Below, in pieces: positions 4,814 through 29,250 of a stretch of 32,000 nucleotides of DNA. The notes below the pieces were generated by a model. That model was not told the DNA's origin and searched no databases. It saw only the letters and a list, made by a program, of their open reading frames with translations. Source of the DNA: Pseudomonas aeruginosa (GTDB lineage: Bacteria > Pseudomonadota > Gammaproteobacteria > Pseudomonadales > Pseudomonadaceae); contig NZ_LN831024.1 in NCBI RefSeq assembly GCF_001457615.1, positions 2,160,001-2,192,000 of the forward strand, given 5' to 3'. Position numbers and translations under genes: made by a program. Position 1 is the stretch's first letter; every line of letters begins with the position of its first letter.

Positions 4814-4936
4814 AAAAAAAACCCGGGTTCTGGGGGATGAATCCGGGTCAAGACCATTAGGAGTGGAACAAAGGTACGCATTCCTCGGTACCTTCACTGG
4901 CTGGGTACTTGGGGGGAGATACCGCGCGCCAGTACC
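4814..4936 (-). ncRNA. rgsA: candidate RgsA (P16)-type small RNA
   Basis: Intergenic between the TatD-family gene and the aminotransferase, where I recall RgsA (about 120 nt) in P. aeruginosa. On the minus strand a CAATACT -10-like box (complement of 4941-4947) sits about 5-7 nt upstream of 4936. About 123 nt downstream is a hairpin ACCCGG...CCGGGT (4821-4848) followed by T8 (complement of 4814-4821). The strand call rests on these signals only. Confidence 0.5.
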
Positions 4937-4962
4937 TTTCAGTATTGGTCATGTTCGTGGGG

Positions 4963-4988
4963 CGTCCAGACAGGGCTGGCGGTTTTTT
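4963..4988 (+). terminator. weak intrinsic terminator-like hairpin plus T6 on the plus strand
   Basis: CCAG-acaggg-CTGG core stem with flanking GC pairs, followed by TTTTTT at 4983-4988. Would stop plus-strand read-through from the TatD gene. Confidence 0.35.
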
Positions 4989-5024
4989 AAACAGATTTGG
5001 AATACCCTTGCCGTCCTTGAGTAC

Positions 5025-7869: not shown

Positions 7870-8711
7870 CTAGTTAGTAGGCCCTGGGGTTGATATTAAT
7901 TTTTCCTGCTTCAGTTGCTGCTGGCGAGTTCGCCAACTTGCAGCAAATTCTGCCGGGGTGAGATTGCCAATCGCGCTGTGCGGTCGGTGTTCGTTGTAAT
8001 CCCGCCGCCAGGCCGCAATGCGGATTCTCGCTTCGGCCAGCGAACAGAACCAGTGCTCATTGAGGCATTCGTCCCGGAACTTACCGTTGAACGACTCGAT
8101 GAAGGCATTCTGCGTGGGCTTACCAGGCTGAGCTTGATGTCGCGCTGATAGGCCCATTGATCGAGTGCCTTGCCGGTGAACTCGGGCCCCTGGTCGGTGC
8201 GGATCGCTTTCGGGTAGCCGCGAAACCGCGCCATCTCGTCCAGCGCCCGTGTGACACGAAAGCCGCTGATACCGTGCTCCACCAGGATGCCGACCGACTC
8301 CTTGGTGAAGTCATCGACCACCGTCAGGCATTTGATCCGCCGCCCGGTGCTCAGTGCATCGAAGACGAAGTCCATCGACCAGACCTGGTTTGGTGCGCTC
8401 GGCAAACTCAGACGTTCGCGCTCCACCGCGACGCCATGGCGGCGGCGCCGCCGTTTCACCATCAAGCCGGCAGCGCGGTACAGGCGATAGATCCGCTTGT
8501 GGTTGACCTGCACGCCAGCACGCCGCAGCAGGATGTGCAGGCGGCGATAGCCAAAGCGCCGGCGCTCTTGGGCCAGTTCCACCAGTTGGGCTTGCAGCTC
8601 GGTGTTTTGCACACTGGCTCGCGGCTGGTAGCGCAACACCGAGCGGGACAGCCCGATCAACTGACAGGCACGACGCTCGGAGATGCCGGTTCGCGCCTGC
8701 ATCTCCTGCAC
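7870..8711 (-). pseudogene. IS3-family transposase OrfB (DDE integrase core) with an extra frame break
   Basis: Two overlapping minus-strand ORFs. 7911-8711 carries ...WSMDF...TDQGPEF...AYQRDIKLSL and then nonsense. 7870-8157 carries QPGKPTQNAFIESFNGKFRDECLNEHWF.... The continuous sequence expected in intact elements needs a frame change near 8118-8135, upstream of the catalytic E region. Confidence 0.7.
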
Positions 8712-8734
8712 CGCCTCCCGCCGTGCTGTCGGGC

Positions 8735-8998
8735 TTACCCTTTTCCCCGGGCGACCACTTTCAGCGACTCGATGTCGAGGTGGGCCTCGGCGAGCAACTT
8801 CTTCAATCGGCTGTTTTCCAGTTCAAGATCCTTCAACCGTTTGGCGTCCGCCACGGTCATACCGCCAAACTTGGCCCGCCAGGTGTAGAACGAGGCATCA
8901 CTGAAGCCGTGTCGGCGACACAGTTCCTTCACCGGCACACCGGCCTCCGCCTGCTTGAGGAAGTCGAGAATCTGCTCTTCGGTAAAACGCTTTTTCAC
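8735..8998 (-). CDS. IS3-family transposase OrfA (HTH)
   Basis: 87 aa, MKKRFTEEQILDFLKQAEAGVPVKELCRRHGFSDASFYTWRAKFGGM.... This matches IS407-group OrfA proteins as I recall them. Ends at GGAAAAGGGTAA, where a -1 slip would fuse it to orfB (...RVSPTARREAVQEMQ...). Confidence 0.85.
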   Translation of the reverse strand: MKKRFTEEQILDFLKQAEAGVPVKELCRRHGFSDASFYTWRAKFGGMTVADAKRLKDLELENSRLKKLLAEAHLDIESLKVVARGKG

Positions 8999-9787
8999 TG
9001 CCGTCTCCTGCTCGGAAAACGGACTCTACTAAGTTTGACGTGGTACTGAAATCGGGGGGGCAGGTCATTCGTGCGCAACGTCTTCGCAGAGTTGGGGTCG
9101 CGTGCAGCGGTCGATAAAGCGCTCTCCAGGCTAGTGCAGTTAGGTTGCCTGGAGCGTGTAGCCCGCGGTGTCTATATGCGCCCCAAGCTAAGCGAGTACA
9201 CCAGCCAGCTGGTAAAGCCTAGTCCGCTAGCAATCATGAATGTCCTTTCCAAGGCGAATGGAGAGACGATTCAGATACATGGAGCTGAGGCCGTGCGCAG
9301 GTTGGGGCTCAGCACTCAGATGCAGGTGGTGCCGGTCTACTACACCAGCGGCAGAACCCGAGAAATCAAGGCTGGCAATGCTGTGGTTCGTCTCAATCAT
9401 GTTTCCAGTGATCGCTTGCAGCATGCCGGGAACAAGGTAGGCCTGGCGCTCACGGCGCTTTACTACCTCGGTAAAGATGGGGCGTGTCCCCACGCGCTTT
9501 CCAAAATAGCCGATACCCTGAGCCCGGACGAATTGACCACGCTGCTTGCCTGCAGAATGCCCAAATGGATGCGGGCGGCATTGGCTCCTTTCGCTGAAGA
9601 AGCATCACTGGCGGTGTCTTCGGGGCGCTAGCCAAAGCTTCCAGCACACCAGACCGAATGGATCGCAATGTTGGGTTGTGACCATTTGACTCAAGCCGGG
9701 TGCAACTTCATCGAAGCTATGTATTTGTGCTGTTAAGTTAAATGCAAAGGCAGTACATTTACGTGACTTTTTTGACGAGGCCCTGCC

Positions 9788-9976
9788 ATGTCACGCCTTA
9801 AGGACGAAACCCTTTCGATCCGCACCTCCGCTGAGATCAAGCAGCTTTTGCGTATGGCGGCTGATCGCGAACGCCGCTCGGTGGCATCGATGGTCGAGAT
9901 TTTGGTGCTGGAGTACGCGCGCAATCATGACTTGAGTCTGAACCACCCAGGCGGGGAGCCCAAGACGAATGCTTGA
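9788..9976 (+). CDS. ribbon-helix-helix (CopG/Arc/MetJ-like) small DNA-binding protein
   Basis: 62 aa. LSIRTSAEIKQLLRMAADRERRSVASMVEILVLEYA fits the strand-helix-helix pattern of RHH antitoxins/repressors. Ends 71 nt before the hsdR start. Confidence 0.6.
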   Translation: MSRLKDETLSIRTSAEIKQLLRMAADRERRSVASMVEILVLEYARNHDLSLNHPGGEPKTNA

Positions 9977-10047
9977 TGTGGCTCTGATTCGCCACAGGTA
10001 GCCGCCTATCCGCCACATCGAAGCCTCTATGACGGCAGGACTGATTC

Positions 10048-13000
10048 ATGACCATCACCGAACACCAGATCGAGCAGGACCTGCTCGCCAAGCTCGGCGA
10101 CCTCAAGTACAGCTATCGCCCCGAGATTCGCGACCGCGCCGGGCTCGAAGCCAACTTTCGCGAAAAGTTCCAGCAGCTCAACCGCGTCAACCTCACCGAT
10201 GAGGAGTTTGCGCGCCTGCTGGAAGAGATTGTTACACCCGACGTGTTCACCGCCGCGCAAACGCTGCGTACACGCAATAGCTTCATCCGCGAAGATGGCA
10301 CGCCGCTGAACTACACCCTCGTCAACATCGAAGACTGGTGCAAGAACAGTTTCGAGGTTGTAAACCAGCTGCGGATCAACACCGACAACAGCCACCACCG
10401 TTTTGACGTCATCCTGCTCATCAACGGTGTGCCGGTCGTGCAGATCGAACTAAAGACGCTGGGCATCAACCCGCGCCGCGCCATCGAGCAGATCGTCGAG
10501 TACAAGAACGACCCTGGTAACGGCTTCACCCGCACGCTGTTGTGCTTCATGCAGGTGTTTATCGTCAGCAACCGCGTTTCAACCTACTACTTCGCCAACA
10601 ACAACTCTCGGCACTTCAGTTTCAACGCCGATGAGCGCTTCCTACCCATTTACCAGTTTGCTGCGCTGGATAACACCAGGATCACCGGGCTGGATGATTT
10701 TGCCGATGTCTTCCTGCCCAAGTGCACGCTCGGCCAGATGATCAGCCGTTACATGGTGCTGGTCGCCAGCGAGCAGAAATTGCTCATGATGCGGCCCTAC
10801 CAGATCTATGCCGTCAAAAACATTGTCAAGTGCATCGAAGAAAACAGTGGCAACGGCTATATCTGGCACACCACCGGCAGCGGCAAGACGCTCACCAGCT
10901 TCAAGGCCTCCACCCTGCTCAAGGCCAATCCGAACATCGAAAAGTGCCTGTTCGTGGTCGATCGCAAAGACCTCGACCGGCAAACCCGCGAGGAATTCAA
11001 CCGTTTCCAAGAAGGCTGCGTCGAAAGCAACACCAACACCAGCGAGCTCGTCCGTCGTATGCTGTCGGACGATGCGGCCGACAAGGTTATCGTCTGCACC
11101 ATTCAGAAGCTTGGCCTGGCACTGGACGAGGGCAGCAGACGCAACAAAAGCCGCGAGAAGCGTGGACTTGCAACTTATGCCGAGCAGCTCGAAGCGCTGC
11201 GCGATAAGCGTATCGTCTTCATCTTTGACGAATGCCACCGTTCGCAATTCGGCGATAACCATCAGGCCATTAAGACGTTCTTCCCCAAGGCCCAGCTTTT
11301 TGGCTTTACCGGCACGCCAATCTTCGAGGCCAATGCCAGCATTAAGCAGATCAGTGGCGAAGAGAAGACGCTAAAGACCACGCAGGATTTGTTCCAGCAA
11401 TGTCTGCACGAATACACCATTAGCGATGCCATCGACGATCGCAATGTTTTGAAGTTCCACGTCGACTACTACAAACCCGACGGGAAGAACCCACCCAAAC
11501 CCGGTGAAACCCTGGCCAAGCGCGCCGTCGTTGACGCCATCCTCGCCAAGCACGATGCCGCTACGGGGGGGCGCAAGTTCAACGCGATTCTGGCCACAGC
11601 TTCCATCAATGATGCCATCGCCTATCACGCACTATTTGAAGAGGCTCAGGCCGAGAAACTGCAGGCCAACCCCGAGTTTGTGCCGCTAAATATCGCCGCC
11701 GTGTTCTCTCCGCCGGGCGACGTGAGCGCCGATGTACGTCAGTTGCAGGAAGACCTGCCCACCGAGCTGGAAGACAACCAGCAGGAGACGGACGCCAAGA
11801 AGGCGGCGCTGCAAGCGATCATTGCCCGCTATAACGCCCGCTTCGATACGAACCACCGCATTGAGGAATTCGACCTCTACTACCAGGACGTGCAGCAGCG
11901 CATCAAGGATCAGCAATGGCCGGATGCCGACCTGCGCAAAGCCAACCCCAGGGCCCCGCAACACAAGATCGACATCACCATCGTCGTCGACATGCTGCTC
12001 ACCGGCTTCGACAGCAAGTACCTCAACACGCTTTACGTCGACAAGAATCTCAAACACCACGGCCTTATTCAGGCCTTCAGCCGTACCAACCGCGTGCTGA
12101 ATGATACCAAGCCCTTTGGCCATATCCTCGACTTCCGTGGGCAGCAAGACGCGGTGGACGCTGCCATCGCGCTTTTCTCCGGCGCGAAGGCCGATGAGGC
12201 GCGCACAATCTGGTTGGTGGACAAAGCCCCTGCGGTTATCGAAAAGCTCCAAGAAGCCGCACTCGGCCTGCACAGCTTCATGGAGGCATACGGGCTTTCA
12301 GGCAAACCCGAGGAGATTGCCACGCTCAAGGGCGACGAAGCCCGGATCGGCTTTGTCGAAGCCTTCAAGAAGGTGCAGAAGCTGCAAACCCAGCTCGACC
12401 AGTACACCGACCTTACCCCCGAGCAGGAAGCCTCTATCCAGGCCATCCTGCCGCCGGACGAACTCAACGCCTTCCGTGGCCAGTACCTGGAGACGGCCAG
12501 ACGCCTGCGCGACGAGCGAGCCAAGCCTGGCGATGCCAAGCGCGAGGAACTGGAGCAGCTCGATTTCGAGTTCGTGCTCTTCGCTTCCGCCACCATCGAT
12601 TACGACTACATCATGAGACTGATCGCCGACTTCTCCACCAAGAAGCCTGGCAAAGCCACCATGAGCCGCGAACAGCTGGCCAGCCTGATCGCGAGCGACG
12701 CCAAATTCATCGACGAGCGCGATGACATCACCGAATACGTGATGAGCCTCAAGGCCGGCGAGGGCCTGGACGAACGCGCCATTCGCATGGGCTACCAGCA
12801 ATTCAAGGCGGTAAAAGCCTCCCGCGAACTGACCGAGCTAGCGGCCAAGCACGGACTGCCCACTGCAGCACTACAAAGTTTTATGGATGAGGTACTGGAG
12901 CGCCGCATCTTCGACGGCGAACAGCTAACCGAATTGCTCGCCCCGCTGGAACTGGGTTGGAAGGCGCGTACGCAGAAGGAATTGGCCTTGATGAGCGAGC

Positions 13001-13068
13001 TGGCACCGATGCTGAAGAAGCGAGCCGGCGGCCGGGATATCTCAGGCCTCCAGGCGTATGAGGATTGA
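10048..13068 (+). CDS. hsdR: type I restriction endonuclease R subunit (type IC / EcoR124I-like architecture)
   Basis: 1006 aa. SD AGGA 7 nt upstream. PD-(D/E)xK nuclease region DVILLINGVPVVQIELK. SF2 motor motifs WHTTGSGKTLTSF, FIFDECHRSQ and QAFSRTNR. The region around the nuclease motif (...FVISN...YFAN) resembles EcoR124I HsdR as I remember it. Confidence 0.92.
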   Translation: MTITEHQIEQDLLAKLGDLKYSYRPEIRDRAGLEANFREKFQQLNRVNLTDEEFARLLEEIVTPDVFTAAQTLRTRNSFIREDGTPLNYTLVNIEDWCKNSFEVVNQLRINTDNSHHRFDVILLINGVPVVQIELKTLGINPRRAIEQIVEYKNDPGNGFTRTLLCFMQVFIVSNRVSTYYFANNNSRHFSFNADERFLPIYQFAALDNTRITGLDDFADVFLPKCTLGQMISRYMVLVASEQKLLMMRPYQIYAVKNIVKCIEENSGNGYIWHTTGSGKTLTSFKASTLLKANPNIEKCLFVVDRKDLDRQTREEFNRFQEGCVESNTNTSELVRRMLSDDAADKVIVCTIQKLGLALDEGSRRNKSREKRGLATYAEQLEALRDKRIVFIFDECHRSQFGDNHQAIKTFFPKAQLFGFTGTPIFEANASIKQISGEEKTLKTTQDLFQQCLHEYTISDAIDDRNVLKFHVDYYKPDGKNPPKPGETLAKRAVVDAILAKHDAATGGRKFNAILATASINDAIAYHALFEEAQAEKLQANPEFVPLNIAAVFSPPGDVSADVRQLQEDLPTELEDNQQETDAKKAALQAIIARYNARFDTNHRIEEFDLYYQDVQQRIKDQQWPDADLRKANPRAPQHKIDITIVVDMLLTGFDSKYLNTLYVDKNLKHHGLIQAFSRTNRVLNDTKPFGHILDFRGQQDAVDAAIALFSGAKADEARTIWLVDKAPAVIEKLQEAALGLHSFMEAYGLSGKPEEIATLKGDEARIGFVEAFKKVQKLQTQLDQYTDLTPEQEASIQAILPPDELNAFRGQYLETARRLRDERAKPGDAKREELEQLDFEFVLFASATIDYDYIMRLIADFSTKKPGKATMSREQLASLIASDAKFIDERDDITEYVMSLKAGEGLDERAIRMGYQQFKAVKASRELTELAAKHGLPTAALQSFMDEVLERRIFDGEQLTELLAPLELGWKARTQKELALMSELAPMLKKRAGGRDISGLQAYED

Positions 13069-13071
13069 TCA

Positions 13072-14382
13072 ATGGTGAAGGCGGGCAATAAAGCGATGGT
13101 ACCTCGGTTGCGGTTTCCGGAGTTTCAACACGAGGGAGACTGGACGACAGTAAAGCTTGGGGCTGTTGCGACGATTAGCACAGAAAAAGTTGGCAATAAC
13201 ATTTGCGTGCCGATGAGCATCACATCCGGCGTGGGGCTTGTAAGTCAAGAGGACAAGTTTGGCCGTGTAATCGCTGGCGACTCATACAAAAGCTACTTGC
13301 TCTTGAAGCCAAACGATTTTGCTTACAACAAGAGCGCTACCAAGGAATTTCCTGAAGGTTTTCTCACTCTGTACTCGGGTACGGAGCTGGCTGCGGTTCC
13401 GAACAGTATATTCACTTGCTTTCGGATCAACGGCGCGTCGCCAAATACGCGGTTTCTGAACTATCAATTCTCAGACAACCTGCACGGGCGTTGGCTGCGC
13501 AAGTTCATTCAGGTTGGGGCTCGGGCGCATGGTTCGTTGAGTGTCAGTGATGGCGACTTGCTGGCGCTGCCCATTCCCGTTCCGGCGGGCACAACATCGG
13601 TCGCAGAACAACAAAAAATCGCCGACTGCCTCACCTCTCTGGACGAGCTGATTACAGCGCAGGAGCGAAAAGTCGAGGCATTAAAGACTTACAAGCGCGG
13701 CCTGATGCAGCAGCTCTTCCCCCGCGAAGGTGAAACCCTTCCCCGTATCCGCTTTCCCGAGTTCCGTGGTGCGCCAGAGTGGCAAGCCAAGCCATTAGGA
13801 GAGCTTGTGCAACTGCAGTCTGGATTTGCATTCTCAAGCAGTTTCTTCTCGGACTCAGGCCAGAAGTTGGTGACCCCAAAGAACTTTACAAAGACGGGTT
13901 TCGGAAATTTTGAGAGTTCGATCTCGAAATATACAACAGAGGAAGTGTCAGAAAAATACCAGTGTCGCCCAGGTGATTTACTTGTGCTTCTGACAGATTT
14001 AACTCCTACTTGCGCACTTTTAGGTCAGCCGATAGAAGTGACTGAGGCGGACGGCAACCTGCTACTCAATCAGCGAGTGGTGAAGATTGAACCAATATCA
14101 GCGCGGGTTAATAAGAGTTTTCTAAAGCAATTTCTGCTAAGCGACTCTTACCGCAAGGTTATAGTAGGAACTGCAACCGGGACTACCGTTAAGCATAGCT
14201 CTAATAAGGTTCTGGAGGGAATAGAGTTCGTTTTCCCTCAAGAAGAGGAGCAGCTCTGCATTGCTACTTGCCTTTCCTCCTTAGATGTGCAGATTTTCGT
14301 CGAATATAAAGCAATCGAACTAATAAAAACTCATAAGGCGGGACTCGTGCAGCAGTTGTTTCCGTCTCAAGGGGCGGCTTGA
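13072..14382 (+). CDS. hsdS: type I restriction-modification specificity subunit
   Basis: 436 aa with two target-recognition halves, each preceded by PR(L/I)RFPEF and followed by a conserved helix ending GLMQQLFP / GLVQQLFP. Starts 3 nt after the hsdR stop. Confidence 0.9.
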   Translation: MVKAGNKAMVPRLRFPEFQHEGDWTTVKLGAVATISTEKVGNNICVPMSITSGVGLVSQEDKFGRVIAGDSYKSYLLLKPNDFAYNKSATKEFPEGFLTLYSGTELAAVPNSIFTCFRINGASPNTRFLNYQFSDNLHGRWLRKFIQVGARAHGSLSVSDGDLLALPIPVPAGTTSVAEQQKIADCLTSLDELITAQERKVEALKTYKRGLMQQLFPREGETLPRIRFPEFRGAPEWQAKPLGELVQLQSGFAFSSSFFSDSGQKLVTPKNFTKTGFGNFESSISKYTTEEVSEKYQCRPGDLLVLLTDLTPTCALLGQPIEVTEADGNLLLNQRVVKIEPISARVNKSFLKQFLLSDSYRKVIVGTATGTTVKHSSNKVLEGIEFVFPQEEEQLCIATCLSSLDVQIFVEYKAIELIKTHKAGLVQQLFPSQGAA

Positions 14383-14384
14383 CA

Positions 14385-15524
14385 ATGGCTGTTATATTGT
14401 TTTCAGATTTGTCGGCACTGGCACAATACTTACGTGAGAACCTTGAATTAAAGAAGTTCTCGCTTATTTATGCCTACAATGGGACGGGAAAAACAAGGCT
14501 GTCTGGAGAATTCAAGGAGCAGGGTAAGAAGTTCGGCGAGGACCGCGAGATCACGCAGCGTGATACGCTTTATTTCAATGCGTTCACCGAAGATCTTTTT
14601 AACTGGGATAACGACCTCAAAAACGACCGAAAGCGAGTGCTGAAAATCAACGGCGATTCTCGTTTCTTCTCAGGGCTAGAAACGCAGGAAATGGATAATC
14701 GTATCCGCCCGCTGCTAAACCGCTACGCAGACTTTGACTTTCGCATCGACACCACCGAGTGGGAGGTGAGCTTCTCCCGAGAAGTGGAGATCGACGGTAA
14801 GAGGACAACGGTAGAAGACATCAAGGTCTCACGTGGCGAAGAGAACATCTTCATCTGGTGTTTCTTTCTCGCCATAGTGCAGCTCGCGCTCGATGGTGAC
14901 GAGGCCTACGAGTGGGTGAAGTACGTCTACATCGACGATCCGATTTCATCTCTTGACGAGAACAATGCGATCGCTGTGGCCCACCACTTGGCCCAATTAC
15001 TGATGGCCACCGATAAAGGGCCGCGCGTGGTCGTGTCCACGCATCATGTACTTTTCTTTAACGTGCTATGCAATGAGTTCAAGGGCAAGGCCTACAAGCA
15101 TCTGCTGAAGAGGGGGGCGGCGCTGGGTAGCTATTCGCTAGTGGATACCTCGGCCAGGCCCTTTCTTCACCATCTATCAAACTTAGTTGAGCTGTATGAC
15201 GCGCAGGCCAGTGGTTCCCTTTACACCCACCACTTCAACATGATGCGGCGAGTCATGGAGCAGACCGCAAATTTCTTGGGGCTGGACGACTGGAAGGCCT
15301 GCATTGCCGCGCCGGATGGTGCAGACAAGGCACTGCACAAGCGCTTCATTGATCTGATGAGCCATGGCGACTATTCGCTCTATGAGCCTCGGGAAATGAT
15401 GGAGGAGAACAAAGCGTACTTCCGGATTATCTTTCGGCAGTTCATTACCGGGCACCCCTTCAATCGCGCACTGTTTCCGAACCTTTTCAATATAGCGGGC
15501 GCGACCCCGGATGTTGACGCATGA
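14385..15524 (+). CDS. prrC: PrrC-like AAA_13-family ATPase, candidate anticodon nuclease
   Basis: ATG 14385 lies 2 nt after the hsdS stop (the ORF track starts at TTG 14379). Walker A YAYNGTGKT, ABC-signature-like VSRGEENIF, Walker B YVYIDDPISSLD, then VVVSTHH. The C-terminal region has RRVME (R-x3-E) and SHGDY about 35-40 residues later, reminiscent of the reported PrrC Arg/Glu/His triad. It is embedded in a type IC R-M operon, as E. coli prrC is. Confidence 0.6.
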   Translation: MAVILFSDLSALAQYLRENLELKKFSLIYAYNGTGKTRLSGEFKEQGKKFGEDREITQRDTLYFNAFTEDLFNWDNDLKNDRKRVLKINGDSRFFSGLETQEMDNRIRPLLNRYADFDFRIDTTEWEVSFSREVEIDGKRTTVEDIKVSRGEENIFIWCFFLAIVQLALDGDEAYEWVKYVYIDDPISSLDENNAIAVAHHLAQLLMATDKGPRVVVSTHHVLFFNVLCNEFKGKAYKHLLKRGAALGSYSLVDTSARPFLHHLSNLVELYDAQASGSLYTHHFNMMRRVMEQTANFLGLDDWKACIAAPDGADKALHKRFIDLMSHGDYSLYEPREMMEENKAYFRIIFRQFITGHPFNRALFPNLFNIAGATPDVDA

Positions 15525-15934
15525 GAGGACTCATCCTCTACACCACTGGCGACGAATGCAGCCAGGTCAAGCTGCGAGCCAAGGATCAGCCGGTCTGGCT
15601 CTCTCAGCGTGAAATGGCAGAGGTGTTCGACGTCAGTACCGATAAAGTCAGCCTGCACCTGAAGAATATCTTTCACGATGGCGAGTTGAGCCGTGAGGCG
15701 ATCCCCGTGAGCTTCTGGCGCCAGAACGTGGACCAGATCATCGGTAGCAACGGTTTTCCGCTGCTCACCCATGCCGGCAAGGTGAGCTACGCGCAAATGG
15801 AACGTGCCACCATTGCGCTTTATCTCGATTATGACCAACGCCGCAAACAGAAGGAGGCACGTCAGGCCGACGCGCAGGACGAAGCTGAACCCAAGGCGCT
15901 GGAAAACACACTCAAGAAACGGCCCAAACCATGA
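15521..15934 (+). CDS. short RhuM-family-like protein (N- and C-terminal RhuM segments, central core absent)
   Basis: 137 aa with ATGA overlaps at both ends. The N-terminus ILYTTGDECSQVKLRAKDQPVWLSQREMAEVFDVSTDKVSLHLKNIFHDGEL matches the RhuM N-terminal pattern (IxYQTxDGxxxIxVRLxxETVWLTQxQMAELF...HIKNIFxEGEL). The tail (LLTHAGKVSYAQMERATIALYLDYDQRRK) resembles the RhuM C-terminal tail. Full-length RhuM proteins are roughly 300+ aa, from memory. Confidence 0.5.
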   Translation: MRGLILYTTGDECSQVKLRAKDQPVWLSQREMAEVFDVSTDKVSLHLKNIFHDGELSREAIPVSFWRQNVDQIIGSNGFPLLTHAGKVSYAQMERATIALYLDYDQRRKQKEARQADAQDEAEPKALENTLKKRPKP

Positions 15935-17583
15935 CCGAACAAGACCAGAAACAGCTGGGCAAAACCCTATGGGCGATTGCCGACCAATTACGTGGTTCGA
16001 TGAACGCCGACGATTTTCGCGATTACATGCTGTCCTTCCTCTTCCTGCGCTACCTCTCGGACAACTACGAACAGGCTGCGAAGCGGGAGCTGGGGCCCGA
16101 TTATCCGGACGTGGCGCCGGACGTGATGGAGCAGACCGAAGCCACGACACCGCTGCAAATCTGGTATGAAGAGAACGCCAGCGACGTGGTGGCGTTCGAG
16201 AAGCAGATGCGCCGCAAGGTGCACTATGTAATCGAGCCAGAGTACCTATGGGGCAACATCGTTCAACTGGCCAAGACCCAGAGCGACAAGCTGCTCGATA
16301 CCTTGCAACGGGGCTTCAAGTACATCGAGAACGAGTCCTTCCAAAGTAACTTCCAAGGATTGTTCTCGGAAATCAACCTCGCGTCCGACAAGCTCGGTCG
16401 CAAGTACGAGGATCGCAATGCCAAGCTGTGTTCGATCCTCTCGGAGCTGGCGCGCGGCATGTCGCTGTTCTCCACCGACACCGACACGTTGGGCGACGCT
16501 TATGAGTACCTGATCGGCCAATTCGCCGCAGGCTCGGGCAAGAAGGCGGGCGAGTTCTACACCCCGCAGCAGGTCTCGAACATTCTTTCGGCCATCGTCA
16601 CGCTCGACGGCCAGGCGCCCGAGACCGGTCTCCGCAAAAAGCTGGAAAGCGTGTTCGACTTCGCCTGTGGCTCGGGCTCGCTGCTGCTGAACATCCGGCA
16701 CCGCATGAAGGACGCGGGTGGTAGCATCGGCAAGATCTACGGGCAGGAATACAACATCACTACCTACAACCTGGCGCGCATGAACATGTTGCTGCACGGG
16801 GTGAAGGACACCGAGTTCGAGATTTACCACGGCGACACGCTGACCAATGCCTGGGACTTCCTGCGCGAGACCAATCCGGCGAAGAAACCGCAGTTTGACG
16901 CGGTGGTGGCCAATCCGCCGTTCAGCTATCGCTGGGATCCGAGCGATGCCATCAGCGAAGACATGCGCTTCAAGAACCACGGCGTGGCACCCAAGAGTGC
17001 GGCGGACTTCGCCTTCCTGCTGCACGGGCTGCACTACCTCAAAGACGATGGCGTGATGGCCATCATCCTGCCGCACGGCGTGCTGTTCCGGGGTGGTGCG
17101 GAAGAGCGTATTCGCCGCAAACTGCTGCAGGATGGACACATCGATACCGTGATCGGGCTGCCGGCCAATCTGTTTTATTCAACAGGCATCCCGGTTTGTA
17201 TTCTCGTGCTGAAGAAGTGCAAAAGATCGGACGATGTGCTGTTTATCAACGCGGCCGAGCACTTCGAGAAGGGTAGGAGGCAGAACCAGCTAGCAGACCG
17301 ACATATCGACAAGATTATCGAGACCTACGAGCAACGCCCAGCGGAAGTACCGCGCTATGCGCGACGGGTAAGCATGCAGGAGATCGAGAAGAACGACTTT
17401 AACCTGAATATCTCGCGCTACGTCAGCACGGCGGTGGCCGATGAAGAAATAGACCTGACGGCCGTGCATGCCGAGCTTGTGGCACTGGATCAGAGGATCA
17501 AGACGGCCACCGATAAACACAATGAATTCCTCAAGGAACTTGGGCTGCCGCTGCTACCCTACGGTTCTGAGGTATCACGGTAA
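15931..17583 (+). CDS. hsdM: type I restriction-modification N6-adenine DNA methyltransferase subunit
   Basis: 550 aa. HsdM N-domain (LWAIADQLRG...FLFLRYLSD), FYTPQQV, AdoMet motif FDFACGSGSLLL and catalytic NPPF (VVANPPFSYRW). Confidence 0.92.
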   Translation: MTEQDQKQLGKTLWAIADQLRGSMNADDFRDYMLSFLFLRYLSDNYEQAAKRELGPDYPDVAPDVMEQTEATTPLQIWYEENASDVVAFEKQMRRKVHYVIEPEYLWGNIVQLAKTQSDKLLDTLQRGFKYIENESFQSNFQGLFSEINLASDKLGRKYEDRNAKLCSILSELARGMSLFSTDTDTLGDAYEYLIGQFAAGSGKKAGEFYTPQQVSNILSAIVTLDGQAPETGLRKKLESVFDFACGSGSLLLNIRHRMKDAGGSIGKIYGQEYNITTYNLARMNMLLHGVKDTEFEIYHGDTLTNAWDFLRETNPAKKPQFDAVVANPPFSYRWDPSDAISEDMRFKNHGVAPKSAADFAFLLHGLHYLKDDGVMAIILPHGVLFRGGAEERIRRKLLQDGHIDTVIGLPANLFYSTGIPVCILVLKKCKRSDDVLFINAAEHFEKGRRQNQLADRHIDKIIETYEQRPAEVPRYARRVSMQEIEKNDFNLNISRYVSTAVADEEIDLTAVHAELVALDQRIKTATDKHNEFLKELGLPLLPYGSEVSR

Positions 17584-17833
17584 GAAACGCCTATGGCAAT
17601 TTGGTTGGTCCCTGTGAGCTCGCACGGCGGGTTCAAATCCCTATTAGAATTTGAATCCAATACACCATCGTTCCACCGCCAAATAATATCGCGGAAAATC
17701 AGTAAATAATTCTCCGCACTTTTTACGTTCGAGCAGGCGCACAACGTACCGGTCGGCGTTTGTTACGGGCTTGAGGTCAAAGCATCGCATAGGCTTTCGA
17801 CCTCGGTGGGAAGCTTTCAATGAGGTCGCAGTT

Positions 17834-18115
17834 ATGGAACAGGCCGAATCTGTCACTGATATCTTTTGCGATGTTTGTGGCAACAGCATGCGTGTTGAAG
17901 GGTATGGGTTGCAATTCGGAACCCTTCGCGCCAGTTGGGAACTCGGCTCGGCTCATGCTGGCGAGCGTTATGAAGTCCATCTGTGCGAACTCTGCTTTTT
18001 CAGGACCCTGGCAGGCTTGAAGCGCGAGCGAATGGTGAACTCGATGTTCAGTGCCAGCAACGAGGACTTGAGCCGTTTCGGTCTTATCGCGCGCGATGAT
18101 TCTTCCATCGTTTGA
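17834..18115 (+). CDS. hypothetical small protein with CxxC...CxxC (zinc-ribbon-like)
   Basis: ATG 17834 is preceded by GAGG 8 nt upstream (the ORF track starts at TTG 17771). 93 aa containing CDVCG and, about 45 residues on, CELCF. I recognise no family. Confidence 0.4.
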   Translation: MEQAESVTDIFCDVCGNSMRVEGYGLQFGTLRASWELGSAHAGERYEVHLCELCFFRTLAGLKRERMVNSMFSASNEDLSRFGLIARDDSSIV

Positions 18116-18136
18116 GTAAGCTCAGCGCTCTCATCT

Positions 18137-18146
18137 CCCCCCCCCC
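18137..18146. repeat. C10 homopolymer tract
   Basis: Ten consecutive C read directly from the sequence, 21 nt after the stop of the zinc-ribbon-like ORF, in the AT-rich right arm of the insertion. Confidence 0.95.
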
Positions 18147-18328
18147 TCATGTCTCATGTGCCGTTCATTTTTGTACAAGCGGAGTGTGGTTTGCTCAAGG
18201 CTCTGATAGTGCTTTTAGGAGTGCACAAAACATTGATGCTCAAAAGAAGTCCAATAGTAAGGTCATAAAAATCAATTACTTGCTTTTCATGTGCTTCTTT
18301 TTTGTATGATGGCAGGATAACTACCAAT

Positions 18329-19105
18329 GAGATGTATACCCAGCCGCAAAAGAAATTTCGCGCCCGCGACGAGAACGAGGTACTGGAGGAGATCCGCCGC
18401 TGCGGCGAGCGCCTGATCGTCAAGCGGGTGTTTCTCGCCGATGGCGACGCCCTGGTATTGCCGACCCGCCGGCTGCTCGCGGTGCTGCAGGCGATTCGCC
18501 AGCACTTGCCGGAGGTGGAGCGGGTATCCAGCTACTGCCTGCCGCGCAACCTGCGCAGGAAGTCGGTCGACGAGTTGCGCGAACTGGCCGACGCCGGGCT
18601 GCGAATGGCCTATGTCGGCGCCGAGTCCGGCGACGACGAAGTGCTGGCGCGGGTCAACAAGGGCGAGACCTATTCCTCTACCCTGGATGCGCTGGAAAAG
18701 CTTGGCGAGGCGGGGATCAGTCGTTCGGTGATGATCCTCAACGGTCTGGGCGGAATGACCCTGAGCGCGCAGCACGCGGACAACTCCGCGCGCCTGATGA
18801 ACGCCGCCCAGCCGGAGTACCTGTCGACCCTGGTGGTGAGTTTCCCTACCGGCGAGCAGCGTTTCCGTGCTGGCTTCGCCGATTTCGAGGCGCTGGATCG
18901 GCGTGCCCTGTTCGTCGAGGTCGAACGCCTGTTGCAGGGTTTGGAGCTCGAAGACACGGTATTTCGCAGCGACCACGCTTCCAACTATCTGGTGCTCAAG
19001 GGCGAACTGGGTGCCGACAAGGCGCGCCTGCTGGCCGAGGTCCGCCAGGCCATCGAGCAGCCGCAGCACGCTGCCCTGCGCCAGGAGTGGCAGCGTGGCC
19101 TGTGA
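18329..19105 (+). pseudogene. radical-SAM protein, C-terminal fragment (continuation of 7032-7153)
   Basis: Reading frame from GAG 18329: EMYTQPQKKFRARDENEVLEEIRRCGE...VFLADGDALVLP...AYVGAESGDDEVL, which is the radical-SAM core after the Cys cluster. The upstream codons MYDGRITTN come from inserted DNA. Confidence 0.8.
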
Positions 19106-28849: not shown

Positions 28850-29000
28850 TCAAACGAAAGGTTCCAGGCCGGTCTCCGGGCTCGCGCGCGATGCGCTTAC
28901 CGTTGCGGGGGCAGCGCCGGACTGGCTCGGAGAGCGTCACCGGCTTCCCGTTTCACCTCGTGCGCGCCGGCACGAGACACCTGGGACAACCCGCCTAGGA
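28850..29000 (-). promoter_or_regulatory. cobalamin (B12) riboswitch upstream of cbtB-cbtA
   Basis: The minus strand reads ...GGTGAAACGGGAAGCCGGTG...GCTGCCCCCGCAACGGTAAGC...GAGCCCGGAGACCGGCC (B12 box, complement of 28868-28884). Boundaries are approximate. Confidence 0.75.
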
Positions 29001-29059
29001 CAGCATGAAGGACCGCCGGGCGTCAACCGGCCCGATTGACCCTGGCCCGCGCACTGCGT

Positions 29060-29250
29060 AGCCTTGCCGGTTCGAGGTTCCTCGCCGGCGACGGCGGGGC
29101 TAAGAGGGAACGCGGTCGATGCCGCGGCTGCCCCCGCAACTGTGAACGGCGATCGTTCCCCAATGCCACTGCGTGACGCGGGAAGGCGGGGAACCGGCGG
29201 AGACGCCAGACCGTGAGCCAGGAGACCTGCCTCGTCGATCCCGTGGCGCG
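29060..29250 (+). promoter_or_regulatory. cobalamin (B12) riboswitch upstream of cobW-cobN
   Basis: The plus strand reads ...AAGAGGGAACGCGGT...GCTGCCCCCGCAACTGTGAACGG...GCCACTG...GAGCCAGGAGACCTGCC (B12 box, about 29215-29232). Boundaries are approximate. Confidence 0.75.

Follow-up and report, generated by a model that had tools for sequence, protein, structure and literature searches.

In the classical prr locus of Escherichia coli, the gene for the anticodon nuclease PrrC is embedded among the genes of a restriction-modification (R-M) system, arranged as hsdM-hsdS-prrC-hsdR (PMC3014915). The latency and activation of PrrC have been described (PMC3014915, PMC12707154), and a 2025 review presents it as an 'RM guardian' (PMC12707154). 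PrrC-like genes also occur in loci that combine R-M genes with RhuM-like genes, for which Anantharaman et al. (2013) proposed a multi-level defence acting on DNA, RNA and protein, with RhuM as a putative toxin (PMC3710099); and a 2025 survey reports type I R-M systems with an embedded PrrC in island hotspots of Pseudomonas aeruginosa (PMC12629846). Here a locus of this kind is analysed within a stretch of 32,000 nucleotides (nt) of P. aeruginosa DNA (contig NZ_LN831024.1, positions 2,160,001 to 2,192,000 of the forward strand; termed here the window), in which five genes follow one another on one strand: hsdR, hsdS, prrC, a short gene termed here Y, and hsdM. As a whole, the locus is probably best explained as a PrrC-guarded type IC R-M operon that has the standard layout of its clade and that carries a decayed rhuM gene.

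A first-pass annotation, made from the sequence alone, had placed five same-strand open reading frames (ORFs) at these coordinates (Table 1) with the junctions given below, all of which are found as it described them; its guesses at their identities were right as well, inasmuch as HsdR, HsdS and HsdM are recognized by Pfam, NCBIfam and PADLOC models, the third gene encodes PrrC, and Y is related to RhuM. As read in the sequence, the TGA of hsdR (13066-13068) is followed by the ATG of hsdS at 13072 (a 3-nt gap) and the TGA of hsdS (14380-14382) by the ATG of prrC at 14385 (a 2-nt gap); prrC and Y share an ATGA (15521-15524), as do Y and hsdM (15931-15934). A TTG at 14379 offers an alternative prrC start that would create a 4-nt overlap with hsdS; the ATG is preferred because a P. 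aeruginosa database protein (P0121), which is 100% identical to the product and is present on 44 contigs, has 379 amino acids (aa). A purine-rich, Shine-Dalgarno-like string precedes each of hsdR, hsdS and prrC, and inspection of the junction sequences revealed no recognizable Shine-Dalgarno sequence upstream of Y or hsdM, so that ribosomes probably pass between these genes by termination-reinitiation. A scan of the forward strand from 8900 to 18400 found no sigma-70-like promoter, its consensus being of the E. coli type, such that internal promoters could escape it; terminator-like matches were not more numerous than in shuffled sequence, which is weak evidence in either direction. All five seem to belong to a single operon, preceded by a short gene that probably encodes a ribbon-helix-helix (RHH) regulator.

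From its domain content, the enzyme is classified as a type IC-like R-M system of the EcoR124I/EcoprrI family, because HsdR carries the nuclease (HSDR_N, E = 1e-34), the superfamily 2 (SF2) motor (SWI2_SNF2/ResIII; SWI2_SNF2, 2e-55), helical domain 3 (T1R_D3-like, 3e-57) and the EcoR124-type C-terminal domain (EcoR124_C, 1e-62), and is encoded together with a canonical HsdM and a canonical HsdS with two target-recognition domains. HsdR also matches TIGR00348 (381 bits) and PADLOC REase_I (1087 bits). HsdS matches Pfam Methylase_S in two stretches and PADLOC Specificity_I over its full length (408 bits), and HsdM matches Pfam N6_Mtase (1e-105) and HsdM_N, TIGR00497 (374 bits, against a cut-off of 243) and PADLOC MTase_I (526 bits).

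The product of the third gene has the PrrC architecture, that is, an N-terminal ABC-type nucleoside triphosphatase (NTPase) followed by a C-terminal HEPN ribonuclease (RNase). Its assignment rests on the PADLOC PrrC model PDLC02360, which it matches nearly over its full length (E = 6e-134, 444.7 bits; residues 7-363 against positions 18-348 of 372), and on its motifs: a Walker A (A30-T37, AYNGTGKT), a signature-like SRGE (149-152), a Walker B (YIDDPISSLD, 182-191), an H-loop (STHH, 218-221) and the HEPN motif R320-x6-H327, both end residues of which are invariant across an alignment of 21 homologues. Pfam AAA_13 matches as well, and the gene adjoins hsdS within a type I R-M operon; a sequence search of the Protein Data Bank (PDB) with PrrC gave no meaningful matches. 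These features identify the product as a full-length, bona fide PrrC anticodon nuclease whose activity is predicted from the conservation of its motifs. By homology to E. coli EcoprrI and PrrC, the R2M2S complex would restrict unmethylated incoming DNA and at the same time keep PrrC latent; a phage anti-restriction factor that disables the complex would release the HEPN RNase; and the released PrrC would cut the anticodon loop of a tRNA, thereby aborting the infection.

To see how this layout compares with those of relatives, genomes were scanned with a PrrC alignment, taking one genome per species, which yielded 80 loci, and tblastn was run with the window proteins. The 80 loci span more than 10 phyla (among them Acidobacteriota, Pseudomonadota, Bacillota, Cyanobacteria, Verrucomicrobiota, Planctomycetota, Chloroflexota and Bacteroidota). 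The order hsdR-hsdS-prrC-hsdM, on one strand, occurs in all 69 complete loci; the other 11 are interrupted by contig ends and none of them contradicts it. Existing annotations show this order also for E. coli ETEC1739 (NZ_CP122758.1) and JJ2434 and for the IncC plasmid pNDM-1_Dok01 (NC_018994.1), and the hsdM clade of the window was found in 100 of 5426 complete E. coli genomes. The first-pass annotation had considered the order unusual; it does differ from that of the E. coli prr locus, but it is not peculiar to the window, being invariant within the clade, of which it is the majority architecture and not an exception. Nor is the tight spacing due to chance, because the junctions are contiguous (60 nt or less) in most related loci (57 of 72 for hsdR/hsdS, 57 of 80 for hsdS/prrC and 61 of 76 for prrC/hsdM), mostly as overlaps of -4, -1 or -8. 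All three junctions admit extra genes, with 11, 9 and 14 inserts, respectively; these encode RhuM proteins of 334-352 aa, Bro-N proteins, DUF1016/YhcG nucleases, Schlafen/AlbA_2-HATPase proteins, a HEPN_LA2681 protein, DEAD helicases, DprA/SLOG proteins and a TrlF-family ATPase. RhuM lies between hsdS and prrC in four loci (L013, L019, L030, L079) and between prrC and hsdM, which is where Y lies, in seven (L014, L017, L024, L038, L060, L066, L072).

Y derives from a 336-aa rhuM by an internal deletion of 597 nt (199 codons) that preserves the reading frame. Aligned with RhuM proteins of 334-344 aa from the same slot, it retains residues 1-61 and about 262-336 (the last 75 or so) and lacks about 199 of 336 residues (about 62-260), a region that covers every conserved motif of the RhuM core (YNLDAILAVGYRV..., DDERLKNPD and SEKRFYQK). 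Consistent with this, only residues 56-111 match Pfam RhuM (PF13310), at positions 196-251 of 252 and with 28.3 bits (cut-off 33.7), as compared with 358.8 bits over positions 2-251 for the full-length RhuM of L014; and only the N-terminal domain (residues 4-60) matches PADLOC PDC-S05 (E = 1.8e-28). Where a full-length 336-aa RhuM occupies this slot (L014, L017, L060, L072), prrC and hsdM are separated by exactly 1003 nt (1011 nt less 8 nt for two 4-nt overlaps); in the window they are separated by 406 nt (414 nt less 8 nt). By blastn, the match to the rhuM of the P. aeruginosa WS136-type locus L095 breaks off at nt 15692 and is taken up again after 597 nt. At this junction (...ELSREA|IPVSFW...) the N-side sequence reads ...SREAT... 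and the C-side sequence ...RREEIRMSFW..., with a shared CG(N)GAGG-type string; two short stretches of similar sequence, ...SREA... and ...RREEI..., probably gave rise to the deletion, whose running between two similar codon strings would explain the in-frame outcome.

What is left is an N-terminal helix-turn-helix (HTH)-like segment (aa 1-61) fused to a C-terminal helix. Its slot, its overlaps and its homologous termini mark Y as descended from rhuM; it falls below the Pfam threshold and is without the core, and it is therefore best regarded as a rhuM derivative that has presumably lost RhuM function, rather than as a functional member of the family. A P. aeruginosa protein is 99% identical to it, and its junction recurs in the metagenome loci L089, L091 and L093, while L001, L004 (Azotobacter vinelandii) and L006 have other junctions. 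The name 'miniRhuM' used in the first-pass annotation has to be given up, both because Y is a remnant and because a conserved short family, considered as a candidate, was rejected, no two of the short proteins having the same deletion junction.

Y evolves differently from its neighbours. Among the closest loci with the same junction, its ratio of nonsynonymous to synonymous substitution rates (dN/dS) lies at 0.67-0.75, values that do not reject neutrality (p = 0.35-0.38), as against 0.11-0.14 for prrC, 0.08-0.16 for hsdM, 0.07-0.10 for hsdR and 0.19-0.20 for hsdS between the same loci. Its dN is 4.4 times that of the neighbouring genes (p = 3e-7), whereas dS is equal (p = 0.2), and pairs of intact RhuM proteins, which serve as a baseline, have dN/dS values of 0.09-0.29 over the regions that Y retains. 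A three-taxon split assigns about 0.29 and 0.42 to two mini-lineages, versus 0.135 to the outgroup branch. Changes among the closest relatives are non-conservative (tyrosine to cysteine, arginine to cysteine and a 4-aa deletion within the HTH-like segment), and in L093 the 3' end of Y and the hsdM overlap are lost, leaving a 15-nt gap before hsdM. These observations point to relaxed constraint on Y after the deletion; most likely its main remaining contribution is an open frame through which ribosomes reach the start of hsdM, and a weak residual role may persist.

The alternative that Y is a functional mini-protein and a true third partner, its HTH-like domain and C-terminal helix acting as a regulator or adaptor (for instance, as a tether for PrrC or the methylase, or as a repressor of the operon), is unlikely. 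It gains some credence from the intact ORF and the two overlaps in the window, L001, L004, L089 and L091; from dN/dS values of 0.19-0.30, and thus below 1, in more distant comparisons; from more than 30 short proteins with joined N and C termini in the protein database; from short PDC-S05 models (82-116 aa) in PADLOC; and from L006, where a separate Fic gene comes after a mini form. But the short proteins, given their differing junctions, are not one family, and they had been chosen for covering both ends of the query: a sample taken with the N-terminus only (described below) contains a single joined in-frame form among 21 disrupted copies. The near-neutral dN/dS and the non-conservative changes among the closest relatives argue against it too, as do the loss of the 3' end in L093 and an AlphaFold2 model of Y that predicts no part but the C-terminal helix well and has low confidence in the N-terminal domain (mean predicted local distance difference test score 60.9, predicted template modelling score 0.38).

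Some points weigh against the reading preferred here, that is, a PrrC-guarded operon with a rhuM gene in decay. Compared with the more distant same-junction locus L089, Y has a dN/dS of 0.24-0.27, which rejects neutrality (p = 3e-9) and falls inside the intact-RhuM baseline, so that there may be some constraint on Y, or the divergence may be older than independent deletions. The Y ORF has stayed open in four lineages, which simulation over 92 substitutions found to be weakly surprising but not significant (P = 0.077). Moreover, the order of the clade differs from that of the only experimentally studied prr locus, so PrrC silencing could differ as well.

How often rhuM decays was assessed by sampling 80 metagenome loci with the RhuM N-terminal domain alone and classifying them at the DNA level. 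An intact copy is present in 45; in one the N-terminal domain is fused to an unrelated C-terminus; 13 run off the contig and are not assessable; and in the remaining 21 (31% of the 67 assessable loci) rhuM is disrupted, by a frameshift or nonsense mutation (6 loci), an out-of-frame deletion (2), an in-frame deletion that joins the N and C termini (1) or a 3' truncation (12). The gene directly upstream of rhuM in this sample is prrC in 23 of the 80 loci and hsdS in about 22, and the gene downstream is usually hsdM, with an ATGA overlap. Together with the layout survey, in which all assessable loci have hsdS and hsdM on either side of prrC, this bears out the expectation that homologues of prrC and Y would be found recurrently beside type I R-M genes. 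As a more speculative reading, this rate of disruption hints that the core of RhuM acts as a costly toxin, which type I operons lose time and again. The literature search found no experimental study of RhuM in defence, and a PDB sequence search with full-length RhuM gave no meaningful matches, that is, no solved structure detectable by sequence.

Several individual rhuM copies illustrate the forms that rearrangement takes. In the P. aeruginosa WS136-type loci L095-L097 (7219-8228), which represent a second version of the cassette in this species, a near-full-length rhuM is frameshifted into ORFs of 261 aa and 75 aa, the premature TGA overlapping the conserved methionine codon (ATGA) that starts the shorter piece; many 75-aa 'proteins' in databases are this C-terminal piece. 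In the RhuM variant P0007, a second copy of the N-terminal HTH segment is inserted after ...NRLVVIFLE, which suggests recombination between LEMAELF (N-terminal) and LETAELR (C-terminal) as a source of rhuM rearrangements. In L174 (611-1576), the N-terminal domain (aa 1-94) lies within a 321-aa ORF directly upstream of hsdM, the rest of which is without RhuM similarity; because of this fusion, the domain may be a portable module.

The first-pass annotation had inferred from the coupled junctions that translation of hsdM depends on passage through both accessory genes. This is plausible for the window, given that no Shine-Dalgarno sequence is visible before Y or before hsdM, but it is not required in relatives, and the dependence was overstated: L093 has lost the Y/hsdM overlap, and several decayed rhuM genes stop 32-860 nt short of hsdM, which shows that an upstream ORF ending on the hsdM start codon is not a universal need. 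A stronger form of the idea holds that selection keeps Y in frame, hsdM being translated only by ribosomes that terminate at the ATGA, such that only in-frame rhuM lesions are tolerated. In its favour, besides the missing Shine-Dalgarno sequences, are the ATGA overlaps at both ends, which are listed as kept in every close remnant; the frameshifted rhuM of L095, whose stop coincides exactly with the ATG at which the 75-aa ORF restarts; and the hsdR genes of L005 and L006, which likewise lost their motor domain by in-frame deletion. If the idea were true, translational coupling would limit the routes by which defence operons decay, as the motor-less hsdR of these two loci would also illustrate. 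It nonetheless seems rather unlikely. The unbiased sample contains many out-of-frame or truncated remnants, with the distances to hsdM just given; L093 has its 15-nt gap; about one third of the contiguous prrC/hsdM junctions in the 80-locus layout survey are gaps of 2-76 nt rather than overlaps; retention of the ORF over 92 substitutions falls short of significance; and deletion between similar codon strings accounts for the in-frame outcome equally well. The proposal that coupling favours in-frame deletions was likewise not supported by the one in-frame case among 21, the earlier pattern being an artefact of ascertainment. It is doubtful that the remnant is more than mere junk, whether by an open frame that hands ribosomes to an hsdM devoid of a Shine-Dalgarno sequence or by a regulatory or adaptor role of the mini-protein, and a rhuM gene in decay remains the preferred reading.

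The two loci with a shortened hsdR, which belong to one metagenome lineage, differ from the window in other respects. Their hsdR (L005, 5410-7353; L006, 736-2679) is a 647-aa ORF in which residues 2-231 are joined in frame to residues 605-1005, the whole SF2 motor being deleted, and their operons, which are without prrC, contain a rhuM remnant of 110 aa together with a Schlafen/AlbA_2-HATPase gene and a Fic gene of its own.

The operon lies within a conserved cassette, which comprises the RHH gene, the five genes and about 220 nt of 3' flank, and which shares 94.7-94.8% nucleotide identity over 8.1 kb with the metagenome loci L091 and L093. In L001, L004, L089 and L095, the hsdR and hsdM arms are 83-95% identical at the DNA level (95-96% at the aa level in L004) and the hsdS-prrC middle is replaced. 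The cassette is a mosaic in that, compared with L004, L089 and L095, hsdS and prrC (13072-15524) are swapped wholesale, PrrC being 47% identical (aa) and synonymous sites saturated. From these alignments, prrC alleles appear to be exchanged along with hsdS by recombination between the conserved arms. Close relatives occupy different chromosomal sites, with integrases, P4-like satellite genes or further defence genes as neighbours, and the cassette is therefore mobile. Its GC content is 0.48-0.60, as against 0.65-0.70 in the flanks, and it was probably acquired horizontally by a P. aeruginosa-type genome; flanking direct repeats marking an attachment site were not found.

The whole cassette might, given that it adjoins an insertion sequence of the IS3 family in a low-GC island and that rhuM has already decayed, be an inactive relic without any role in defence. 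This is highly improbable: hsdR, hsdS, prrC and hsdM are full length with all of their domains and catalytic motifs, the four genes are under strong purifying selection (dN/dS 0.06-0.20), and their products turn up again on tens of P. aeruginosa contigs. An apparently intact PrrC-guarded R-M operon with a decayed rhuM is retained as the explanation.

Table 1. Features of the window (positions in the 32,000-nt stretch)
Feature	Position	Strand	Description
hsdR	10048-13068	+	1006 aa, type IC-like restriction/motor subunit
hsdS	13072-14382	+	436 aa, specificity subunit with two target-recognition domains
prrC	14385-15524	+	379 aa, predicted anticodon nuclease
Y	15521-15934	+	137 aa, rhuM remnant
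hsdM	15931-17583	+	550 aa, N6-adenine methyltransferase subunit
Conserved mobile cassette	9689-17801		RHH gene, hsdR-hsdS-prrC-rhuM'-hsdM and about 220 nt of 3' flank
RHH-like ORF	9788-9976	+	62 aa, 71 nt upstream of hsdR
IS3-family element	7870-8998	-	orfA and orfB
ORF within IS3-family element	7870-8157		C-terminal end of orfB
DUF6088 gene	9071-9631		weak AbiEi-antitoxin-like N-terminus
tRNA-like string	17605-17645		in conserved flank after hsdM
RgsA	4823-5019	-	small RNA, high-GC flank
Cobalamin riboswitch	28850-28999	-	high-GC flank
Cobalamin riboswitch	29058-29248	+	high-GC flank

The RHH-like ORF at the head of the cassette, which has weak Pfam RHH_5 and TacA1 matches, keeps a constant distance of 71-72 nt from hsdR, upstream of it, throughout the close cassettes (L001, L004, L089-L097) and, the two most closely related loci excepted, has a dN/dS of 0.08-0.26. 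It is probably a transcriptional regulator of the cassette, and its product may serve as the controller of an operon whose restriction subunit comes first. As a general feature of the family the gene was rejected: none of the 80 wider loci has it upstream of hsdR, and it is confined to close cassettes of the Pseudomonas/Azotobacter type.

Upstream, the IS3-family element adjoining the cassette region consists of orfA (HTH_Tnp_1) and orfB (rve). Since another ORF, which overlaps orfB, encodes the C-terminal end of the latter, the transposase may be disrupted. Abutting this element is a gene for a DUF6088 protein with a weak AbiEi-antitoxin-like N-terminus, which is shared only with L001 and has no obvious partner toxin gene. 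Downstream of hsdM, the conserved flank contains a string that resembles the T-arm and 3' end of a tRNA (GGTTCAAATCC); neither ARAGORN nor Rfam detects a tRNA there, and no matching direct repeat was found at the other end of the island. The high-GC flanks contain the Pseudomonas small RNA RgsA (186 bits) and two divergently oriented cobalamin riboswitches.

The gene order and tight coupling seen in the window represent what is usual in a very widespread PrrC-guarded type IC family, which extends over more than 10 phyla and is carried by clinically important IncC plasmids, and which differs from the single textbook locus, E. coli prr. New with respect to the literature found are the occurrence of rhuM, an accessory gene common in type I operons, in fixed, probably translationally coupled slots (between hsdS and prrC or between prrC and hsdM) and the disruption of this gene in about one third of the loci; this rate is consistent with the toxin proposal of 2013, and the disrupted copies identify natural loss-of-function alleles. 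Current understanding of the system is unchanged by these findings, the locus being a further member of a known family; residual interest lies in the high rate of rhuM decay and in the possible role of translational coupling.

Among described systems, the E. coli prr locus (EcoprrI) resembles the window in its type IC-like HsdR, HsdS and HsdM, in a prrC embedded directly after hsdS, in a PrrC that combines an ABC-type NTPase with a C-terminal HEPN RNase bearing Rx6H, and in the presumed logic whereby the R-M complex would hold PrrC latent as a guard against anti-restriction. The window differs from it in the order hsdR-hsdS-prrC-(rhuM')-hsdM, in the extra upstream RHH gene, in the rhuM remnant and in its Pseudomonas host. 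The E. coli and IncC operons with the same order (where the annotated name of PrrC is 'AAA family ATPase' or 'anticodon nuclease') share the 4-nt overlaps and an hsdM of 68-76% DNA identity; unlike the window, they have either a TrlF-family AAA ATPase and an RNA-binding protein between hsdR and hsdS or no such genes, and they lack both rhuM and the RHH gene. The PADLOC candidate PDC-S05 comprises RhuM-family genes in defence loci; its full-length models have 330-346 positions, whereas Y matches through its N-terminal 57 residues only. Finally, the neighbourhoods described in 2013 (PMC3710099) contain the same three components, with RhuM in a slot that is held elsewhere by Fic/DOC toxins. The composite defence module suggested by the first-pass annotation is thus right for the family, for which it had already been published, but its third partner is here a degraded remnant: because the RhuM core (Pfam positions 2-195) is deleted, only two of the three defence tiers can be active in the window.

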